Shown here piece by piece: positions 2,281-42,315 of a DNA stretch of 64,000 nt. Source of the DNA: Escherichia coli. Lineage in GTDB: Bacteria; Pseudomonadota; Gammaproteobacteria; Enterobacterales; Enterobacteriaceae. Within the stretch, counting starts at the first letter, position 1, and each line of letters starts with the position of its first letter. A program made the translations under genes and the position numbers. The notes under the pieces are model-generated. The model made no database searches, had not been told where the DNA came from, and saw only the letters and a program-made list of their open reading frames with translations. The stretch lies in assembly GCF_003790525.1 (NCBI RefSeq), contig NZ_CP033635.1; one strand, given 5' to 3'.

Positions 2281-3576
2281 ATGGTTAGTTTAGAGAAGAA
2301 CGATCACTTAATGTTGGCGCGCCAGCTGCCATTGAAATCTGTTGCCCTGATACTGGCGGGAGGACGTGGTACCCGCCTGAAGGATTTAACCAATAAGCGA
2401 GCAAAACCGGCCGTACACTTCGGCGGTAAGTTCCGCATTATCGACTTTGCGCTGTCTAACTGCATCAACTCCGGGATCCGTCGTATGGGCGTGATCACCC
2501 AGTACCAGTCCCACACTCTGGTGCAGCACATTCAGCGCGGCTGGTCATTCTTCAATGAAGAAATGAACGAGTTTGTCGATCTGCTGCCAGCACAGCAGAG
2601 AATGAAAGGGGAAAACTGGTATCGCGGCACCGCAGATGCGGTCACCCAAAACCTCGACATTATCCGCCGTTATAAAGCGGAATACGTGGTGATCCTGGCG
2701 GGCGACCATATCTACAAGCAAGACTACTCGCGTATGCTTATCGACCACGTCGAAAAAGGCGCACGTTGCACCGTTGCTTGTATGCCAGTACCGATTGAAG
2801 AAGCCTCCGCGTTTGGCGTTATGGCGGTTGATGAGAACGATAAAATTATCGAATTCGTTGAAAAACCAGCTAACCCGCCGTCAATGCCGAACGATCCGAG
2901 CAAATCTCTGGCGAGTATGGGTATTTACGTCTTTGACGCCGACTATCTGTATGAACTGCTGGAAGAAGACGATCGCGATGAGAACTCCAGCCACGACTTT
3001 GGCAAAGATTTGATTCCCAAGATCACCGAAGCCGGTCTGGCCTATGCGCATCCGTTCCCGCTCTCTTGCGTACAATCCGACCCGGATGCCGAGCCGTACT
3101 GGCGCGATGTGGGTACGCTGGAAGCTTACTGGAAAGCGAACCTCGATCTGGCCTCTGTGGTGCCGGAACTGGATATGTACGATCGCAATTGGCCAATTCG
3201 CACCTACAATGAATCATTACCGCCAGCGAAATTCGTGCAGGATCGCTCCGGTAGCCACGGGATGACCCTTAACTCACTGGTATCCGGCGGTTGTGTGATC
3301 TCCGGTTCGGTGGTGGTGCAGTCCGTTCTGTTCTCGCGCGTTCGCGTGAATTCATTCTGCAACATTGATTCCGCCGTATTGTTACCGGAAGTATGGGTAG
3401 GTCGCTCGTGCCGTCTGCGCCGCTGCGTCATCGATCGTGCTTGTGTTATTCCGGAAGGCATGGTGATTGGTGAAAACGCAGAGGAAGATGCACGTCGTTT
3501 CTATCGTTCAGAAGAAGGCATCGTGCTGGTAACGCGCGAAATGCTACGGAAGTTAGGGCATAAACAGGAGCGATAA
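2281..3576 (+). CDS. glgC: glucose-1-phosphate adenylyltransferase (431 aa)
   Basis: Track ORF 2245-3576; start trimmed to ATG 2281 ([17 protein letters not shown]...), giving the canonical length; nucleotidyltransferase motif GGRGTRL. Confidence 0.95.
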
Positions 3577-7591: not shown

Positions 7592-9109
7592 ATGGAAAGA
7601 ATAATGCAAAACGGAAAATGGATTTTGACCTCGCTGGTAATGACTTTTTTTGGCATCCCCATACTGGCGCAATTTTTGGCAGCGGTTGTTGCCATGCTGG
7701 GGGCCGGGCTTGCCGCTATTTTTGATGTTTGCAATTTACTCTTTACGCCAACAATTTATCTTCTACTCAACGTCTTTATGCTGACGCTGGGCGCATTACT
7801 GCTATTTTTCTCTGGGCGAGTGTGGGCGGGCGATAGCGCACCAGAAAACAGAGAAATAGCCGCCTGGCGACAATGTCTTTTTTTAGTTCCCGCTTTATTA
7901 ACCCTGGTTGGCTGGATAATCACGCTACATCTGGCAGATTATCAATTTCGCCAGATGGTTTCAGGTTGGTTGGCAAACCTTATGCTTCCCTGGTTGGGCG
8001 TTTTTACAGTCTCATTCGTCGGTGGTGAGTACTGGTGGATAGTCATTATTCCCGTTGGCGCGCATATCAGTTTTTCACTGGGATACGGCTGGCCGACCAG
8101 ACACCCTTTAACCGGCACCTCCGGTCTACGTTGCCGTAATTTACTTCTGTTCATTCTTCTCTTACTGGGTATTGTCGCTGGTTATCAGGCTTATTTATAT
8201 AAACAGCTTAATCCCGGCGTCGGTGTGCGTGAAAATATTGATACCTGGGCCTGGCGACCCGATAAACTTAATAATCAACTGACGCCACTGCGTGGTAAAC
8301 CACAAATTCAATTTACGCAAAACTGGCCGCGACTCGATGGCGCTACGGCGGCGTACCCCATTTATGCCTCTGCATTTTATGCATTAAGTGTAATACCAGA
8401 GGATTTTCACGTTTGGGATTATCTGGATAACTCTCGTACGCAAGAAGCATATAACAAAATCGTTAAGGGCGATGCTGATATTATTTTCGTGGCGCAACCT
8501 TCCGATGGGCAAAAAAAACGCGCTGAGAAATCGGGCGTCACTTTGCTGTACACGCCATTTGCCCGTGAAGCGTTTGTTTTCATCGTCAATGCGGATAATC
8601 CGGTTAATTCCCTGACTGAACAACAAGTGCGTGACATTTTTAGTGGCGCAATTACCAACTGGCGCACGGTTGGCGGTAACGATCAGGAGATCCAGACCTG
8701 GCAACGCCCGGAAGACTCTGGCAGCCAGACAGTGATGCAATCGCAGGTCATGAAAAATGTCCGCATGATCTCGCCGCAGGAAACCGAAGTGGCAAGCATG
8801 ATGGAGGGAATGATTAAAGTCGTTGCCGAATACCGTAATACAAACAACGCAATAGGCTACACCTTCCGCTATTACGCAACACAAATGAATGCCGATAAAA
8901 ATATAAAACTGCTAGCGATTAACGGTATTGCACCGACTGCGGAAAATATTCGTAACGGCAAATATCCGTATATCATCGATGCCTTTATGGTAACGCGGGA
9001 AAATACTACGTCAGAAACACAAAAACTGGTCGAATGGTTTTTAACGCCGCAGGGACAGAGTCTGGTGGAAGATGTGGGCTATGTGCCGCTGTATCCAACA
9101 ATGAAATAA
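7592..9109 (+). CDS. membrane-anchored PstS-like (phosphate-binding-protein fold) protein: N-terminal polytopic TM domain plus C-terminal PBP domain
   Basis: 505-aa ORF (a second ATG at 7604 has a better-spaced GGAAAG RBS). Residues 1-210 carry about 5-6 hydrophobic helices; the C-terminal 270 aa show PstS-like motifs (AAYPIYASAFY, RPEDSGSQTVM, AIGYTFRYYA) that align with E. coli PstS (FPAPVYAKWA, DGSGTSFVFTSY, AIGYVEYAYA). Possible -10 TATAAT at 7568-7573. Confidence 0.7.
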   Translation: MERIMQNGKWILTSLVMTFFGIPILAQFLAAVVAMLGAGLAAIFDVCNLLFTPTIYLLLNVFMLTLGALLLFFSGRVWAGDSAPENREIAAWRQCLFLVPALLTLVGWIITLHLADYQFRQMVSGWLANLMLPWLGVFTVSFVGGEYWWIVIIPVGAHISFSLGYGWPTRHPLTGTSGLRCRNLLLFILLLLGIVAGYQAYLYKQLNPGVGVRENIDTWAWRPDKLNNQLTPLRGKPQIQFTQNWPRLDGATAAYPIYASAFYALSVIPEDFHVWDYLDNSRTQEAYNKIVKGDADIIFVAQPSDGQKKRAEKSGVTLLYTPFAREAFVFIVNADNPVNSLTEQQVRDIFSGAITNWRTVGGNDQEIQTWQRPEDSGSQTVMQSQVMKNVRMISPQETEVASMMEGMIKVVAEYRNTNNAIGYTFRYYATQMNADKNIKLLAINGIAPTAENIRNGKYPYIIDAFMVTRENTTSETQKLVEWFLTPQGQSLVEDVGYVPLYPTMK

Positions 9110-37805: not shown

Positions 37806-39874
<2,069 letters not shown>

Positions 39875-39877
39875 ATA

Positions 39878-39908
39878 AAACGGGAGGTGAAGGTGCCTCC
39901 CGTTTTTA
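39878..39908 (+). terminator. rho-independent terminator of ompR-envZ
   Basis: Hairpin cgggagg tgaaggtg cctcccg followed by T5; the stop codon of the minus-strand ORF 39906-40202 lies inside the T-run. Confidence 0.65.
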
Positions 39909-40202
39909 GATTGTTTTCAATTGATTGATAATGAAAGGATTCGCTTGCAAAAGCAGGAGCAATTTTCGGGGTGCTCCGGTAGGCTGACGGCGTTTGGTTT
40001 CCCAGCTTTTGACCAGGTCATAACTTACCCCTACGGCGACAGCAAAATCTTGCTGACGTAAACCCGTTGCTTCACGGATCGCTTTTACATCGATTTCGCT
40101 AAAAGTATGGACGTGCTCTGGTTCTGGCGTTTCTTCACCCTTTTCGATGCGTACCATTTCTTCTGCGCTGGCAAGAAGATCAGCAAATAATTCATCTTTC
40201 AT
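39906..40202 (-). CDS. putative antitoxin, helix-turn-helix (XRE / HigA-2-like) DNA-binding protein (98 aa)
   Basis: Small acidic ORF immediately downstream of a toxin-like gene; central-to-C-terminal segment GLRQQDFAVAVGVSYDLVKSWETKRRQPTGAPRKLLLLL resembles an HTH antitoxin module; absent from the compact envZ-pck junction I expect in E. coli K-12. Confidence 0.6.
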   Translation of the reverse strand: MKDELFADLLASAEEMVRIEKGEETPEPEHVHTFSEIDVKAIREATGLRQQDFAVAVGVSYDLVKSWETKRRQPTGAPRKLLLLLQANPFIINQLKTI

Positions 40203-40260
40203 CTGTTTTCAATGCCTCCGTTGACATTTCGGCCATGGTGGAATTTGTGGAGCTTCAACA

Positions 40261-40578
40261 TTAAAGCAGCTTCTCGGACAATAGTTTCAATGCCTTTCTT
40301 TGTTCTTCTGTTAAATCATCCTGTTCATTTTTAGGATAAATCAACGCCAGATAAATTCGGCCATTGCGTGTTACGTTGTAATAAATTATCCGAGTGCCAC
40401 CCCGTTTCCCCATTCCAGAACGGTTCCAGCGAATTTTTCTAAAACTGCCTGTGCCTGCGATAATGTCACCGGCAGTGGGATCTTGAATGAGTAGTTCCTG
40501 AAAAGCCCGGAACTCATCATCAGGTAGCAATAACTGGCGGCGTTTGCTAAATCCTTGTAGTTCAATAAAGGTGAACAT
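40261..40578 (-). CDS. putative type II toxin, RelE/ParE superfamily (HigB-2 / Gp49-like), 105 aa
   Basis: Signature GTGSFRKIRW...GKRGGTRIIYY...YLALIYPKNEQDDLTEEQ closely matches my recollection of HigB-2/Gp49-family toxins; toxin-first gene order with a 58-nt gap to the downstream HTH gene; AT-rich relative to flanking core genes. Confidence 0.6.
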   Translation of the reverse strand: MFTFIELQGFSKRRQLLLPDDEFRAFQELLIQDPTAGDIIAGTGSFRKIRWNRSGMGKRGGTRIIYYNVTRNGRIYLALIYPKNEQDDLTEEQRKALKLLSEKLL

Positions 40579-40641
40579 AATGCATCCTGCGGTCTATTGA
40601 TAATTATAAGTGTACCGTGTACATATTGGTAGCTAATTAGA

Positions 40642-40674
40642 TAAAAAAACCCCTTATCCGTTTGGATAAGGGGT
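40642..40674 (-). terminator. rho-independent terminator of pck
   Basis: Hairpin ccccttatcc gtttg gataagggg with an A8 run on the plus strand (U-run on the pck transcript), about 20 nt after the pck stop. Confidence 0.6.
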
Positions 40675-40692
40675 CAATGAGATATCAGCTGA

Positions 40693-42315
40693 TTACAGCT
40701 TAGGACCTGCCGCTACCAGCGCGGCACCCGCAGGGGTGTCGGTGTATTTATCAAAGTTGTCGATAAACAGTTTCGCCAGGGTTTCGGCTTTTTCCTGCCA
40801 CTGTTCCGGGGAAGCGTAGGTGTTACGCGGATCGAGGATCTTCGTGTCTACGCCCGGCAGTTCGGTTGGGATCGCCAGGTTAAACATCGGCAGAGTGAAG
40901 GTTTCTGCGTTATCCAGCGAACCGTTGAGGATGGCGTCGATAATGGCGCGGGTATCTTTAATCGAGATACGTTTGCCAGTGCCGTTCCAGCCGGTGTTAA
41001 CCAGATACGCCTGCGCGCCTGCCGCCTGCATACGTTTCACCAGCACTTCTGCGTACTGAGTTGGGTGCAGCGACAGGAATGCCGCGCCGAAGCAGGCGGA
41101 GAAGGTTGGCGTCGGTTCGGTGATGCCGCGCTCTGTACCAGCCAGTTTGGCGGTGAAGCCAGAGAGGAAGTGGTACTGGGTTTGATCGGCAGTCAGACGA
41201 GAAACCGGCGGCAGCACGCCGAAAGCATCAGCAGTCAGGAAGATAACCTTAGTTGCGTGGCCCGCTTTGGACACCGGCTTAACGATGTTTTCAATGTGAT
41301 AGATAGGATAAGAAACGCGGGTGTTCTCGGTTTTTGAACCATCATCAAAGTCGATAGAACCATCTTCACGCACGGTGACGTTTTCCAGCAGCGCATCACG
41401 ACGGATAGCGTTGTAGATTTCAGGTTCCGCTTCTTTCGACAGCTTGATAGTTTTTGCGTAGCAGCCGCCTTCAAAGTTAAACACGCCGTCATCGTCCCAG
41501 CCGTGTTCGTCATCGCCAATCAGGCGACGTTTCGGGTCGGTGGAAAGGGTGGTTTTACCGGTGCCGGAAAGGCCGAAGAACACCGCAACATCGCCTTTCT
41601 CACCAACGTTGGCGGAGCAGTGCATAGAAGCGATACCTTTCAGCGGCAGCAGGTAGTTCATCATTGAGAACATCCCTTTCTTCATTTCGCCGCCGTACCA
41701 GGTGCCGCCAATCAGCTGCATGCGCTCGGTCAGGTTAAACGCCACGAAGTTTTCGGAGTTCAGACCCTGTTCTTTCCACTGCGGGTTAGTGCACTTCGCG
41801 CCGTTCATAACGATAAAGTCTGGTTTGAAACCTGCCAGCTCTTCATCGCTCGGGCGAATAAACATGTTTTTGACAAAATGCGCCTGCCAGGCCACTTCGG
41901 TGATGAAACGGACGGAAAGACGAGTATCCGGGTTCGCACCACAGAAAGCGTCGACAACGAACAGACGTTTGCCGGAAAGCTGTTTGGTCACCAGGCCTTT
42001 AAGATGCTGCCAGGTTTCCGGAGAGAGAGGTTTGTTGTCGTTCTTACCTTTGCCTTTGTCTGCCCACCAGAAAGTATCGCGAGTGGTATCGTCACGGACG
42101 ATATACTTATCTTTTGGTGAACGACCGGTGAAGATCCCGGTATCGACGGCAACGGCACCCAGATTAGTTAACACCCCGCGCTCATAACCTGTCAGGCTCG
42201 GATCGAGCTCTTCCTGATACAGCAGGTCGTAGCTTGGGTTGTAAACGATATCATGTACGTCACTGATACCATAAGCCTCGAGTTCTTGCGGGGTCAAACC
42301 ATTGTTAACGCGCAT
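40693..42315 (-). CDS. pck: phosphoenolpyruvate carboxykinase (ATP), 540 aa
   Basis: [36 protein letters not shown]...; kinase P-loop GLSGTGKTT; start trimmed from track ORF 42384. Confidence 0.95.

Follow-up and report, generated by a model that had tools for sequence, protein, structure and literature searches.

The HigB2-HigA2 toxin-antitoxin pair of Vibrio cholerae is a superintegron cassette. Chromosomal integration hotspots occur between conserved core genes, and convergent genes can share bidirectional intrinsic terminators. The V. cholerae operon has the toxin gene first (PDB 5JA8, 5JAA and 8A0X; PMC5416850, PMC11006873), an order that it has in common with the gene pair described here, and the HigA2 footprint, TGTACGC-N5-GCGTACA, extends from after the -35 element across the -10 element (PMC11006873). 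In the literature collection searched, we found no paper that ties the present cassette to envZ/pck: HigB-2/HigA-2 is present in PMC10304320 only as a gene-list entry, and the "nadS" of PMC12350097 is a different K-12 gene rather than the antitoxin gene considered here.

We analyzed a stretch of 64,000 nt of Escherichia coli DNA, hereafter the window, which is 100% identical to E. coli SMS-3-5. In the spacer of the convergent genes envZ and pck it carries a toxin-first operon on the minus strand, for which the SMS-3-5 RefSeq record already annotates a RelE/ParE toxin and nadS. The features of the locus, in window coordinates, are as follows.

38522 to 39874, plus strand: envZ coding sequence, its 3' end forming the left flank (ORF list; RefSeq annotation of SMS-3-5)
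39877 to 39907, both strands: envZ terminator hairpin with T-run (scan, folding energy, sequence)
39906 to 40202, minus strand: antitoxin gene, 98 aa, NadS family, HigA2-like (RefSeq WP_000650976.1)
39907 to 40673, no strand: insertion/deletion difference from the K-12-type allele (pairwise alignment, DH10B and R11)
40203 to 40260, minus strand: spacer of 58 nt between toxin and antitoxin genes (from sequence)
40261 to 40578, minus strand: toxin gene, 105 aa, HigB2-like, RelE/ParE superfamily (RefSeq WP_000493757.1)
40585 to 40588, minus strand: Shine-Dalgarno AGGA, 6 nt before the toxin ATG (from sequence)
40603 to 40608, minus strand: predicted -10 element TATAAT, 6/6 matches (sequence; position shared with relatives)
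40611 to 40623, no strand: predicted operator, palindrome TGTAC-CGT-GTACA (TGTAC-N3-GTACA), inside the promoter spacer
40626 to 40631, minus strand: degenerate -35 element TACCAA, with a 17-nt spacer (from sequence)
40641 to 40675, minus strand: predicted one-directional pck terminator, hairpin 40648-40675 plus U-run from 40649 down to 40641 (scan, folding energy)
40693 to 42315, minus strand: pck (pckA) coding sequence, stop codon 40693-40695 (ORF list; RefSeq)

The toxin and V. cholerae HigB2 align over the full length (phmmer against PDB, HigB-2, E = 5e-24 over residues 3-100), and the toxin also matched Pfam PF06296 (28.4 bits, cutoff 27). The antitoxin was assigned to the NCBIfam NadS family (75.1 bits, cutoff 60) and has the same length and layout as V. 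cholerae HigA2 (HigA-2 in PDB, E = 4.9e-5), with a matching C-terminal XRE helix-turn-helix (Pfam HTH_31 and HTH_3, both over cutoff). An MqsA-family assignment was rejected, as TIGR03830 scored 31.1 bits against a cutoff of 61.8 and the match covered the helix-turn-helix part only. By toxin homology, inverted gene order in one operon and the HigA2/NadS C-terminal helix-turn-helix, the pair is of the HigB2/HigA2 type. The toxin ATG (40576-40578) is preceded by GCAGGA, which is kept in E. albertii, C. portucalensis and K. aerogenes, while the antitoxin has a GGAGG ribosome-binding site (complement of 40215-40219) 12 nt upstream of its ATG. We consider it likely that the pair forms a type II toxin-antitoxin operon complete in itself, of the HigB2/HigA2 kind, insulated by hairpins and equipped with its own autoregulated promoter.

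The first-pass annotation had placed the cassette between two distinct terminator hairpins, and we indeed found two stable hairpins of unrelated sequence (39877-39906 and 40648-40675), both of which passed an intrinsic-terminator scan (GC-rich stem-loop plus U-run just 3' of a stop codon). The number of terminator-like sites was by itself not significant (3 versus 1.6 ± 1.2 in shuffles); the features stand out from chance by their folding energy, by their location right behind stop codons and by being conserved at related loci. The envZ hairpin starts 2 nt past the envZ stop and consists of perfect 11-nt arms (39877-39887 and 39896-39906), with the T-run continuing to 39907. Its RNA folding energy is -19.1 kcal/mol on the plus strand (z = -5.6) and -17.8 kcal/mol on the minus strand (z = -6.0), and 0 of 200 shuffles folded as well. 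It reads AAAACGGGAGG...CCTCCCGTTTTT on the plus strand and ...CCCGTTTTATTT on the minus strand, so that there is a T-run on both strands; with an A-run before it, a T-run after it and a position between convergent genes, the hairpin has the make-up of a bidirectional terminator. The antitoxin stop, which the annotation had located within this T-run, reads TTA on the plus strand (39906-39908), its TT being the final two letters of the run (39906-39907). In the cassette allele, minus-strand transcripts of the toxin-antitoxin operon would end at the envZ hairpin.

The pck-side hairpin lies 17-19 nt past the pck stop, with arms at 40649-40659 and 40664-40674 (the scan gives 12 pairs, from 40675 to 40648), and is followed by T7 on the pck strand (plus-strand A-run 40643-49). 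On that strand it folds at -20.4 kcal/mol (z = -5.9 against shuffles); it is without a T-run on the plus strand and is therefore not a bidirectional terminator. Rfam returned only sub-threshold matches, which resemble terminator hairpins. From the toxin ATG the distance is 62 nt to the end of the T-run (40641) and 70 nt to the stem, in agreement with the earlier estimate of about 65 nt. The stem is identical in C. portucalensis (10/10 in each arm) with a different loop and surrounding sequence that is about 70% identical, and the Pluralibacter copy carries two compensatory pair changes. We infer that this hairpin insulates the cassette promoter from pck transcription.

We set the boundaries of the insertion by affine-gap pairwise alignment with the empty sites of E. 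coli DH10B and R11, a junction comparison that the first-pass annotation had put forward. The two alleles differ at 39907-40673, where 767 nt in the window stand against GCTT in the K-12-type allele, with the left edge ambiguous by 1-2 nt inside the T-run; GCTT is replaced, with no target duplication at the junctions. The suggestion of a precise integration between convergent terminators did not hold for E. coli: in the empty K-12-type allele the spacer contains a single hairpin, that of envZ, set between an A-run and a T-run, and this is the only terminator-like one available to pck. The pck-side hairpin is absent there, and relative to this allele the inserted stretch comprises both the cassette and the pck-side hairpin. 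The empty E. coli sites sampled all had one spacer (657-658 nt span in the query). We found no direct or inverted repeats pairing the insert ends, no terminal inverted repeats and no attC-like site, and there is no transposase or integrase within 3 kb of the cassette. With neither end repeats, nor a duplication, nor an attC-type site, a transposable element, a MITE and an integron cassette were all rejected. A plasmid origin was also set aside, given that close DNA matches in the plasmid collection were confined to very large records (0.57-5.4 Mb) whose gene content is chromosome-like; on true plasmids, the toxin identity of relatives reaches 57% at most. An apparent deletion remnant in E. coli BS-04 was attributed to homopolymer noise of a poor assembly.

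We then examined the region between the toxin gene and the pck-side hairpin. A minus-strand TATAAT had been noted there, which is present at 40603-40608 rather than at 40601-40606, together with a TGTAC-CG-TGTAC repeat, which exists (40611-40622) and is more aptly described as a palindrome, TGTAC-CGT-GTACA (40611-40623). The palindrome TGTAC-N3-GTACA occurs a single time in the window, and one GTAC-N3-GTAC per 64 kb is what base composition predicts. The shorter motif, with a variable centre, nevertheless recurs within the promoter spacer in about nine related modules or lineages, with 0 occurrences in 97 kb of background outside the upstream regions of related modules. It stands just upstream of a -10-like hexamer in C. 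portucalensis, K. aerogenes, Yersinia ruckeri pYR4 and viral contigs L096-L099, less clearly in viral contig L095, and P. dispersa has such sites upstream of the toxin gene too. In most relatives, -10-like hexamers (TATAAT, TATGAT, TATAGT, TATTCT) follow the proximal operator by 2-3 nt; the pYR4 operator lies within a textbook TTGATA-17-TATAAT promoter, and more distant relatives have other palindromes at the same spacer position. Judging from this shared layout, the first proposal, with the -10 as promoter and the TGTAC element as operator of the cassette, is very likely correct. The accompanying claim that any such promoter must overlap the pck terminator was not borne out: there is room for a core promoter, from -35 to +1, within 40596-40631, past the end of the T-run, and only an UP-element-type zone would overlap the pck T-run. 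We predict that transcription starts at about 40595-40598. The -35 matches the consensus at 2-3 of 6 positions (TACCAA, 2/6), where relatives carry TTGATA, TTGACT or TTGCTT and form good promoters, and a consensus sigma-70 scan returned no minus-strand promoter in 40579-40692, the -35 being too poor for the threshold. The cassette promoter may thus be weak, and part of the expression may come from pck read-through.

These features suggest the following course of expression. Transcription of pck would stop at its own strong one-directional hairpin and U7 (40641-40675). Some 45 nt beyond it, a sigma-70 promoter with a perfect -10 and a poor -35 would initiate the cassette RNA around 40596. Repression of the operon would take place at the palindrome 40611-40623, through the antitoxin dimer, either by itself or together with the toxin. 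The toxin would be translated first and the antitoxin second, and the transcript would end at the resident envZ hairpin, into whose stem the antitoxin stop runs. On the plus strand, the same hairpin would end ompR-envZ transcripts and keep antisense transcription off the cassette.

The cassette was found in about 1330 of 5426 complete E. coli genomes (about a quarter), always at envZ-pck; carriers include Nissle 1917, E2348/69 and ATCC 25922. In other strains and genera the spacer holds a 3-gene SMI1/KNR4 island or other inserts of 0.5-1.6 kb, and E. albertii has two islands in tandem with envZ' and pck' fragments between them, an arrangement that points to exchange via flanking homology. The allele with cassette and pck-side hairpin is probably an old presence/absence polymorphism at a frequent insertion spot. 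Between E. coli and C. portucalensis, the antitoxin shares 95% and the toxin 80% protein identity, and 52-54% of third codon positions in the cassette match (near-saturated silent sites), whereas silent sites of the flanking genes are less diverged (64-65% identical). This difference fits poorly with simple vertical descent from an Escherichia-Citrobacter ancestor. Import of the Citrobacter copy with E. coli flanks was also rejected, as its envZ and pck ends are Citrobacter-like up to the spacer. Among natural variants, the operator deletion and a toxin nonsense codon occur in about 100 genomes each (107 and 103). In Nissle 1917 and E2348/69, a 7-bp deletion takes half the palindrome and the toxin is dead in both; the toxin is intact in all four of the intact-operator alleles. 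The link between operator loss and dead toxin consists of these two sequenced examples and the near-equal genome counts, which are not paired genome by genome, and a single shared ancestry could account for it.

We next weighed other explanations of the layout. The cassette might have no effective promoter of its own and mainly extend pck mRNA past a leaky terminator, in which case its levels would follow the gluconeogenic induction of pck. Its position directly downstream of pck on the same strand, the degenerate -35 with no minus-strand promoter in the consensus scan, and the missing distal operator of the relatives would all fit such an arrangement. Yet the pck-side hairpin is strong and its stem is conserved between genera, and the -10, Shine-Dalgarno sequence and operator are placed as in plasmid and viral-contig relatives that have no pck upstream. 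A hairpin at each end argues for an insulated unit on its own promoter, and an operator conserved in the promoter spacers of relatives and absent from background favours an autoregulated promoter, so that we regard expression mainly by read-through as improbable. We hold it very improbable that the cassette in the window is a decaying remnant without function. Such decay does occur elsewhere, as in the roughly 100 genomes with the toxin nonsense allele and a Pluralibacter genome that retains the antitoxin alone, the toxin being gone, and the lost distal operator and good -35 could be read in the same way; in SMS-3-5, however, the palindrome, the -10, and the reading frame and ribosome-binding site of each gene are all intact, the proteins are strongly conserved against near-saturated silent sites, and most carrier genomes share the intact form.

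The history of the pck-side hairpin allows more room for doubt. It could be the old native terminator of pck, with the module having landed between two pre-existing convergent terminators and the K-12-type allele being a later deletion or an unrelated spacer allele. The module is truncated exactly at the hairpin, which replaces the relatives' second operator, and in K. aerogenes, whose copy is without such a hairpin, homology ends just past the proximal operator. Similar C-rich/G-rich hairpins also stand 17-24 nt after the pck stop in the cassette-free Intestinirhabdus and UBA5654, and one is found in Superficieibacter, which has an unrelated 1.6-kb insert. Against a native origin, the hairpin is found in E. 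coli and Citrobacter only along with the cassette, the sampled empty E. coli sites are uniform, and short GC-rich terminator stems can converge. Moreover, 40 of 62 cassette-free spacers of ≤200 nt have one T-tailed perfect-stem hairpin and none has a second, pck-only one, in a crude scan that undercounts imperfect stems and A-runs including the stop codon and serves as a rough guide. On balance, we see a native pck terminator as a substantial possibility, short of an even chance.

Returning to the insulated operon that we favour, the envZ-pck module probably arose by trimming from an ancestor with two operators. In a more tentative extension, to which we give somewhat low credence, the module would have been both trimmed and capped, with one operator, no 3' untranslated region and a hairpin in place of the second operator. 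It would persist, and have passed between Escherichia and Citrobacter, because inserts that split pck from a shared terminator must restore termination and shield their own promoter; the joint loss of operator and toxin in Nissle 1917 and E2348/69 would then be a natural experiment, showing that cells put up with the toxin only while the operon represses itself, with an orphan NadS regulator left behind. Our results offer a tidier annotation of a variable E. coli locus, with insert boundaries, a likely promoter and operator, and probable roles for the hairpins. Current understanding is not challenged, the layout being tidy but ordinary. For HigA2-like antitoxins of the NadS branch, GTAC-N3-GTAC provides an operator consensus that can be put to the test, and the alleles with joint operator and toxin loss provide a ready comparison for studies of autoregulation.

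Compared with known systems, the locus resembles integration hotspots in that the envZ-pck spacer holds different cargo by strain and genus, and differs from them in that no integrase, tRNA or repeat signature was found at envZ-pck. The V. cholerae pair sits in a superintegron, whereas the present pair lies between two housekeeping genes with no attC-like site. The envZ hairpin is built like bidirectional terminators (A-run, GC-rich stem, T-run), but its minus side would serve the toxin-antitoxin operon in the cassette allele and not pck. In V. cholerae the operator is an inverted repeat whose TGTAC outer half-sites overlap the core promoter, as those of the envZ-pck palindrome would. The geometry is different (5-nt arms and an N3 centre here, 7-bp arms and an N5 centre in V. 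cholerae), and of the base-contacting residues R68, E71, N72 and R77 of VcHigA2 only the R77 position is conserved in the envZ-pck antitoxin. Since the spacing differs and three of the four residues are not conserved, the proposed binding of the antitoxin to the palindrome is extrapolated from the conservation of the motif and not from the solved VcHigA2 complex. Homologous RelE/ParE-NadS pairs on plasmids and viral contigs (Y. ruckeri pYR4; IMG/VR L095-L099; toxin identity 50-80%) likewise have GTAC-N3-GTAC operators in the promoter spacer. These relatives have two operators 29-30 nt apart and a good -35, in contrast to the one operator and poor -35 of the envZ-pck module, in which, both in E. 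coli and in C. portucalensis, the T-run of the terminator hairpin begins 26 nt before the remaining operator, at the site of the relatives' second operator.

The cassette, a toxin-first toxin-antitoxin operon, lies between the convergent genes envZ and pck (pckA) in a region 100% identical to E. coli SMS-3-5 (NC_010498.1). The RefSeq annotation gives the order envZ, nadS (WP_000650976.1), a RelE/ParE-family toxin gene (WP_000493757.1) and pckA, with ompR-envZ on the plus strand and the two small genes, then pck, on the minus strand. A literature search found no paper on this locus.

Features of the envZ-pck interval (window coordinates, strand, feature, basis)
39874, plus, end of envZ (ORF list)
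39877-39887 and 39896-39906, plus and minus, envZ hairpin with perfect 11-nt arms, and T-run (sequence, terminator scan)
39906-40202, minus, antitoxin ORF (ORF list; RefSeq nadS WP_000650976.1)
40576-40578, minus, toxin ATG (sequence)
40585-40588, minus, Shine-Dalgarno AGGA (sequence)
near 40596, minus, predicted transcription start (from the -10)
40603-40608, minus, predicted -10, TATAAT (sequence, comparison with relatives)
40611-40623, both, predicted operator, palindrome TGTAC-CGT-GTACA (only one in the window)
up to 40631, minus, end of the predicted core promoter, with a poor TACCAA at the -35 position (sequence)
40648-40675, minus (pck strand), pck hairpin followed by seven T (sequence, terminator scan)
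40693-40695, minus, pck stop (sequence)

As the first-pass annotation had described, two distinct hairpins bracket the cassette (envZ, 39877-39906; pck, 40648-40675), and they have no sequence in common. Both fold at -18 to -20 kcal/mol (z near -6, with no shuffle folding as well); the U-run is present on both strands at the envZ hairpin and on the pck strand only at the pck hairpin. The antitoxin stop does fall in the envZ T-run, two bases of its complement TTA (39906-39908) being the last two T of that run, and base pairing in the envZ stem of the cassette mRNA begins with the final A of this codon. The toxin start is likewise close to the pck terminator (62 nt to the T-run, 70 nt to the stem). 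This anatomy is real and neat, yet as expected for an autoregulated toxin-antitoxin operon between two convergent genes. On the plus strand, a promoter-like TTTAGA-16-GATAAT (39905-39932; 9/12, a consensus match only) lies just past the envZ terminator, antisense into the antitoxin 3' end.

The minus-strand TATAAT reported earlier is present, but at 40603-40608, 2 nt from the position claimed, and the reported TGTAC repeat (40611-40622) is better called the palindrome TGTAC-CGT-GTACA (40611-40623). Their proposed roles as promoter and operator are well supported by related modules, which we drew from K. aerogenes (74% DNA identity, at another locus, murR-yfhL), C. portucalensis and E. albertii (at envZ-pck), plasmids of Yersinia ruckeri and Pantoea dispersa, and IMG/VR viral contigs. 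All relatives with an antitoxin identity of 42% or more carry GTAC-N3-GTAC, with a variable centre, ahead of the toxin gene; elsewhere on these contigs, over 97 kb that exclude the toxin-upstream regions, the motif does not occur. Wherever a relative's promoter is recognisable, the gene-nearest copy stands 2-3 nt before a -10-like hexamer, and on the Y. ruckeri plasmid pYR4 it sits within TTGATA-17-TATAAT; more distant relatives carry different palindromes at the same promoter-spacer position. The V. cholerae HigA2 footprint, TGTACGC-N5-GCGTACA, extends from the -35 across the -10 (PMC11006873). By comparison with the relatives and this footprint, 40611-40623 is therefore the predicted operator and 40603-40608 the predicted -10. 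Among distant HigB2-like modules on viral contigs (L100-L128), other palindromes occur ~20-60 nt upstream of toxin homologues (for example, TTGACA-AACCCTATT-TAA-TAGGGTATTCT), and the operator sequence appears to change along with the antitoxin.

A consensus promoter scan called no promoter at the cassette -35/-10. The predicted core promoter stops 10 nt before the pck T-run; overlap with the terminator, which the first-pass annotation had considered unavoidable, is therefore not required. Expression of the cassette by read-through seems unlikely. Natural variants bear on the operator as well. In Nissle 1917 (L090, 755-1110) and E2348/69 (L091, 662-1020), both regions corresponding to 40515-40623 of the window, one half of the operator with its GTAC has been lost through a 7-bp deletion (TGTACACGGTACAC to TGTACAC), so that the palindrome is reduced to one half-site; both strains also carry a toxin nonsense change at codon 22 (GATGAG to AAGTAG), with an additional frameshift in E2348/69, and an intact antitoxin. 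The operator-deletion allele was counted in ~103 E. coli genomes and the nonsense allele in ~107, while the toxin is intact in 4/4 alleles with an intact operator. This pattern fits a working operator, and the joint loss of operator and toxin could also reflect one shared ancestry.

The K-12-type spacer, which has the envZ hairpin only, lends no support to the first suggestion, an exact insertion between two terminators already present in E. coli. Of 5426 complete E. coli genomes, ~1330 carry the cassette, always on the chromosome and always between envZ and pck; the other E. coli genomes sampled have a common spacer of 75-76 nt, in which an A-run and a T-run flank the lone hairpin, so a single bidirectional terminator could serve both genes. 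Pairwise alignment sets 39907-40673 against GCTT in the empty site; the pck-side hairpin thus belongs to the difference, and junction alignment and a repeat search revealed neither a target duplication nor terminal inverted repeats at the insert ends. The sequence of ~19 nt that separates the hairpin from the pck stop aligns loosely to the pck-proximal portion of the empty spacer. The K-12-type allele (L001, 616-634) contains 21 additional nt (CTGGATAGATATTCTCCAGCT, a weak inverted repeat) with no counterpart in the pck-proximal part of the cassette allele, and the alleles therefore differ by more than the insertion. An apparent deletion in E. coli BS-04 (L005, 2546-2960) was rejected as biological, the mid-cassette being homopolymer-rich noise and an assembly artefact in a 'complete' RefSeq assembly.

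In relatives from loci other than envZ-pck, two operator sites are spaced 29-30 nt apart. Only the proximal one is present in E. coli, E. albertii and C. portucalensis, and in E. coli and Citrobacter the hairpin T-run begins 26 nt upstream of it, at the place expected for the distal site. The K. aerogenes sequence is homologous only from the antitoxin stop codon to just beyond the proximal site. On these comparisons, the envZ-pck version thus amounts to a minimal module fused with a hairpin. The junction is common to the E. coli and Citrobacter copies despite ~25% DNA divergence, with identical hairpin stems and different loops; in Citrobacter, envZ and pck keep the Citrobacter type of sequence at their ends, as far as the spacer. 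We regard it as possible, though rather doubtful, that the hairpin is the native pck terminator of the module's first recipient: similar hairpins occur 17-24 nt past the pck stop in cassette-free spacers of Intestinirhabdus and UBA5654 and in Superficieibacter, which has an unrelated insert, and the fact that the module is cut off at the hairpin suggests that the original module lacked this hairpin, but in E. coli and Citrobacter it is found only together with the cassette, and cassette-free species mostly have one hairpin. The pck-side hairpin of Pluralibacter differs from that of E. coli by two compensatory pair changes; a Pluralibacter MAG (L046, 5384-5825) has an orphan nadS (86% protein identity) between envZ and pck, without toxin gene or GTAC palindrome.

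Across Enterobacteriaceae, the envZ-pck spacer has received inserts repeatedly (L006, L008, L009, L014, L027, L041). A three-gene SMI1/KNR4 island occupies it in E. coli AST85, an Escherichia species and E. whittamii, and unrelated inserts, 0.5-1.6 kb long, are present there in C. amalonaticus, Superficieibacter and an Enterobacter metagenome bin. In E. albertii NBRC 107761 (L007, 5354-9260), an SMI1/KNR4 island of 3-4 genes with its own pck-side hairpin and, as the last element, the cassette with its hairpin lie in tandem, separated by two pieces of pck (8059-8191) and by a second copy, 245 nt long, of the envZ 3' end and terminator (8190-8465). This arrangement points to exchange through flanking homology. 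In K. aerogenes NCTC10006 (L004), a perfect 44-nt direct repeat (2432-2475 and 3293-3336), which covers both the murR stop codon and the beginning of the murR terminator, flanks the murR-yfhL cassette and resembles single-crossover or duplicative insertion, whereas the E. coli junctions have no repeat.

Protein identity between E. coli and C. portucalensis is 95% for the antitoxin and 80% for the toxin, against agreement at only 52-54% of third codon positions; both proteins have therefore been maintained by selection. The toxin, over residues 3-100, aligns to HigB-2 structures from V. cholerae (E=5e-24), and it exceeds the Pfam PF06296 cutoff. The antitoxin scores 75 bits against the NCBIfam NadS model (cutoff 60), exceeds the cutoff for two helix-turn-helix Pfam models and matches HigA-2 (E=5e-5). 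The gene order of the cassette, toxin first, is the same as that of higBA systems.
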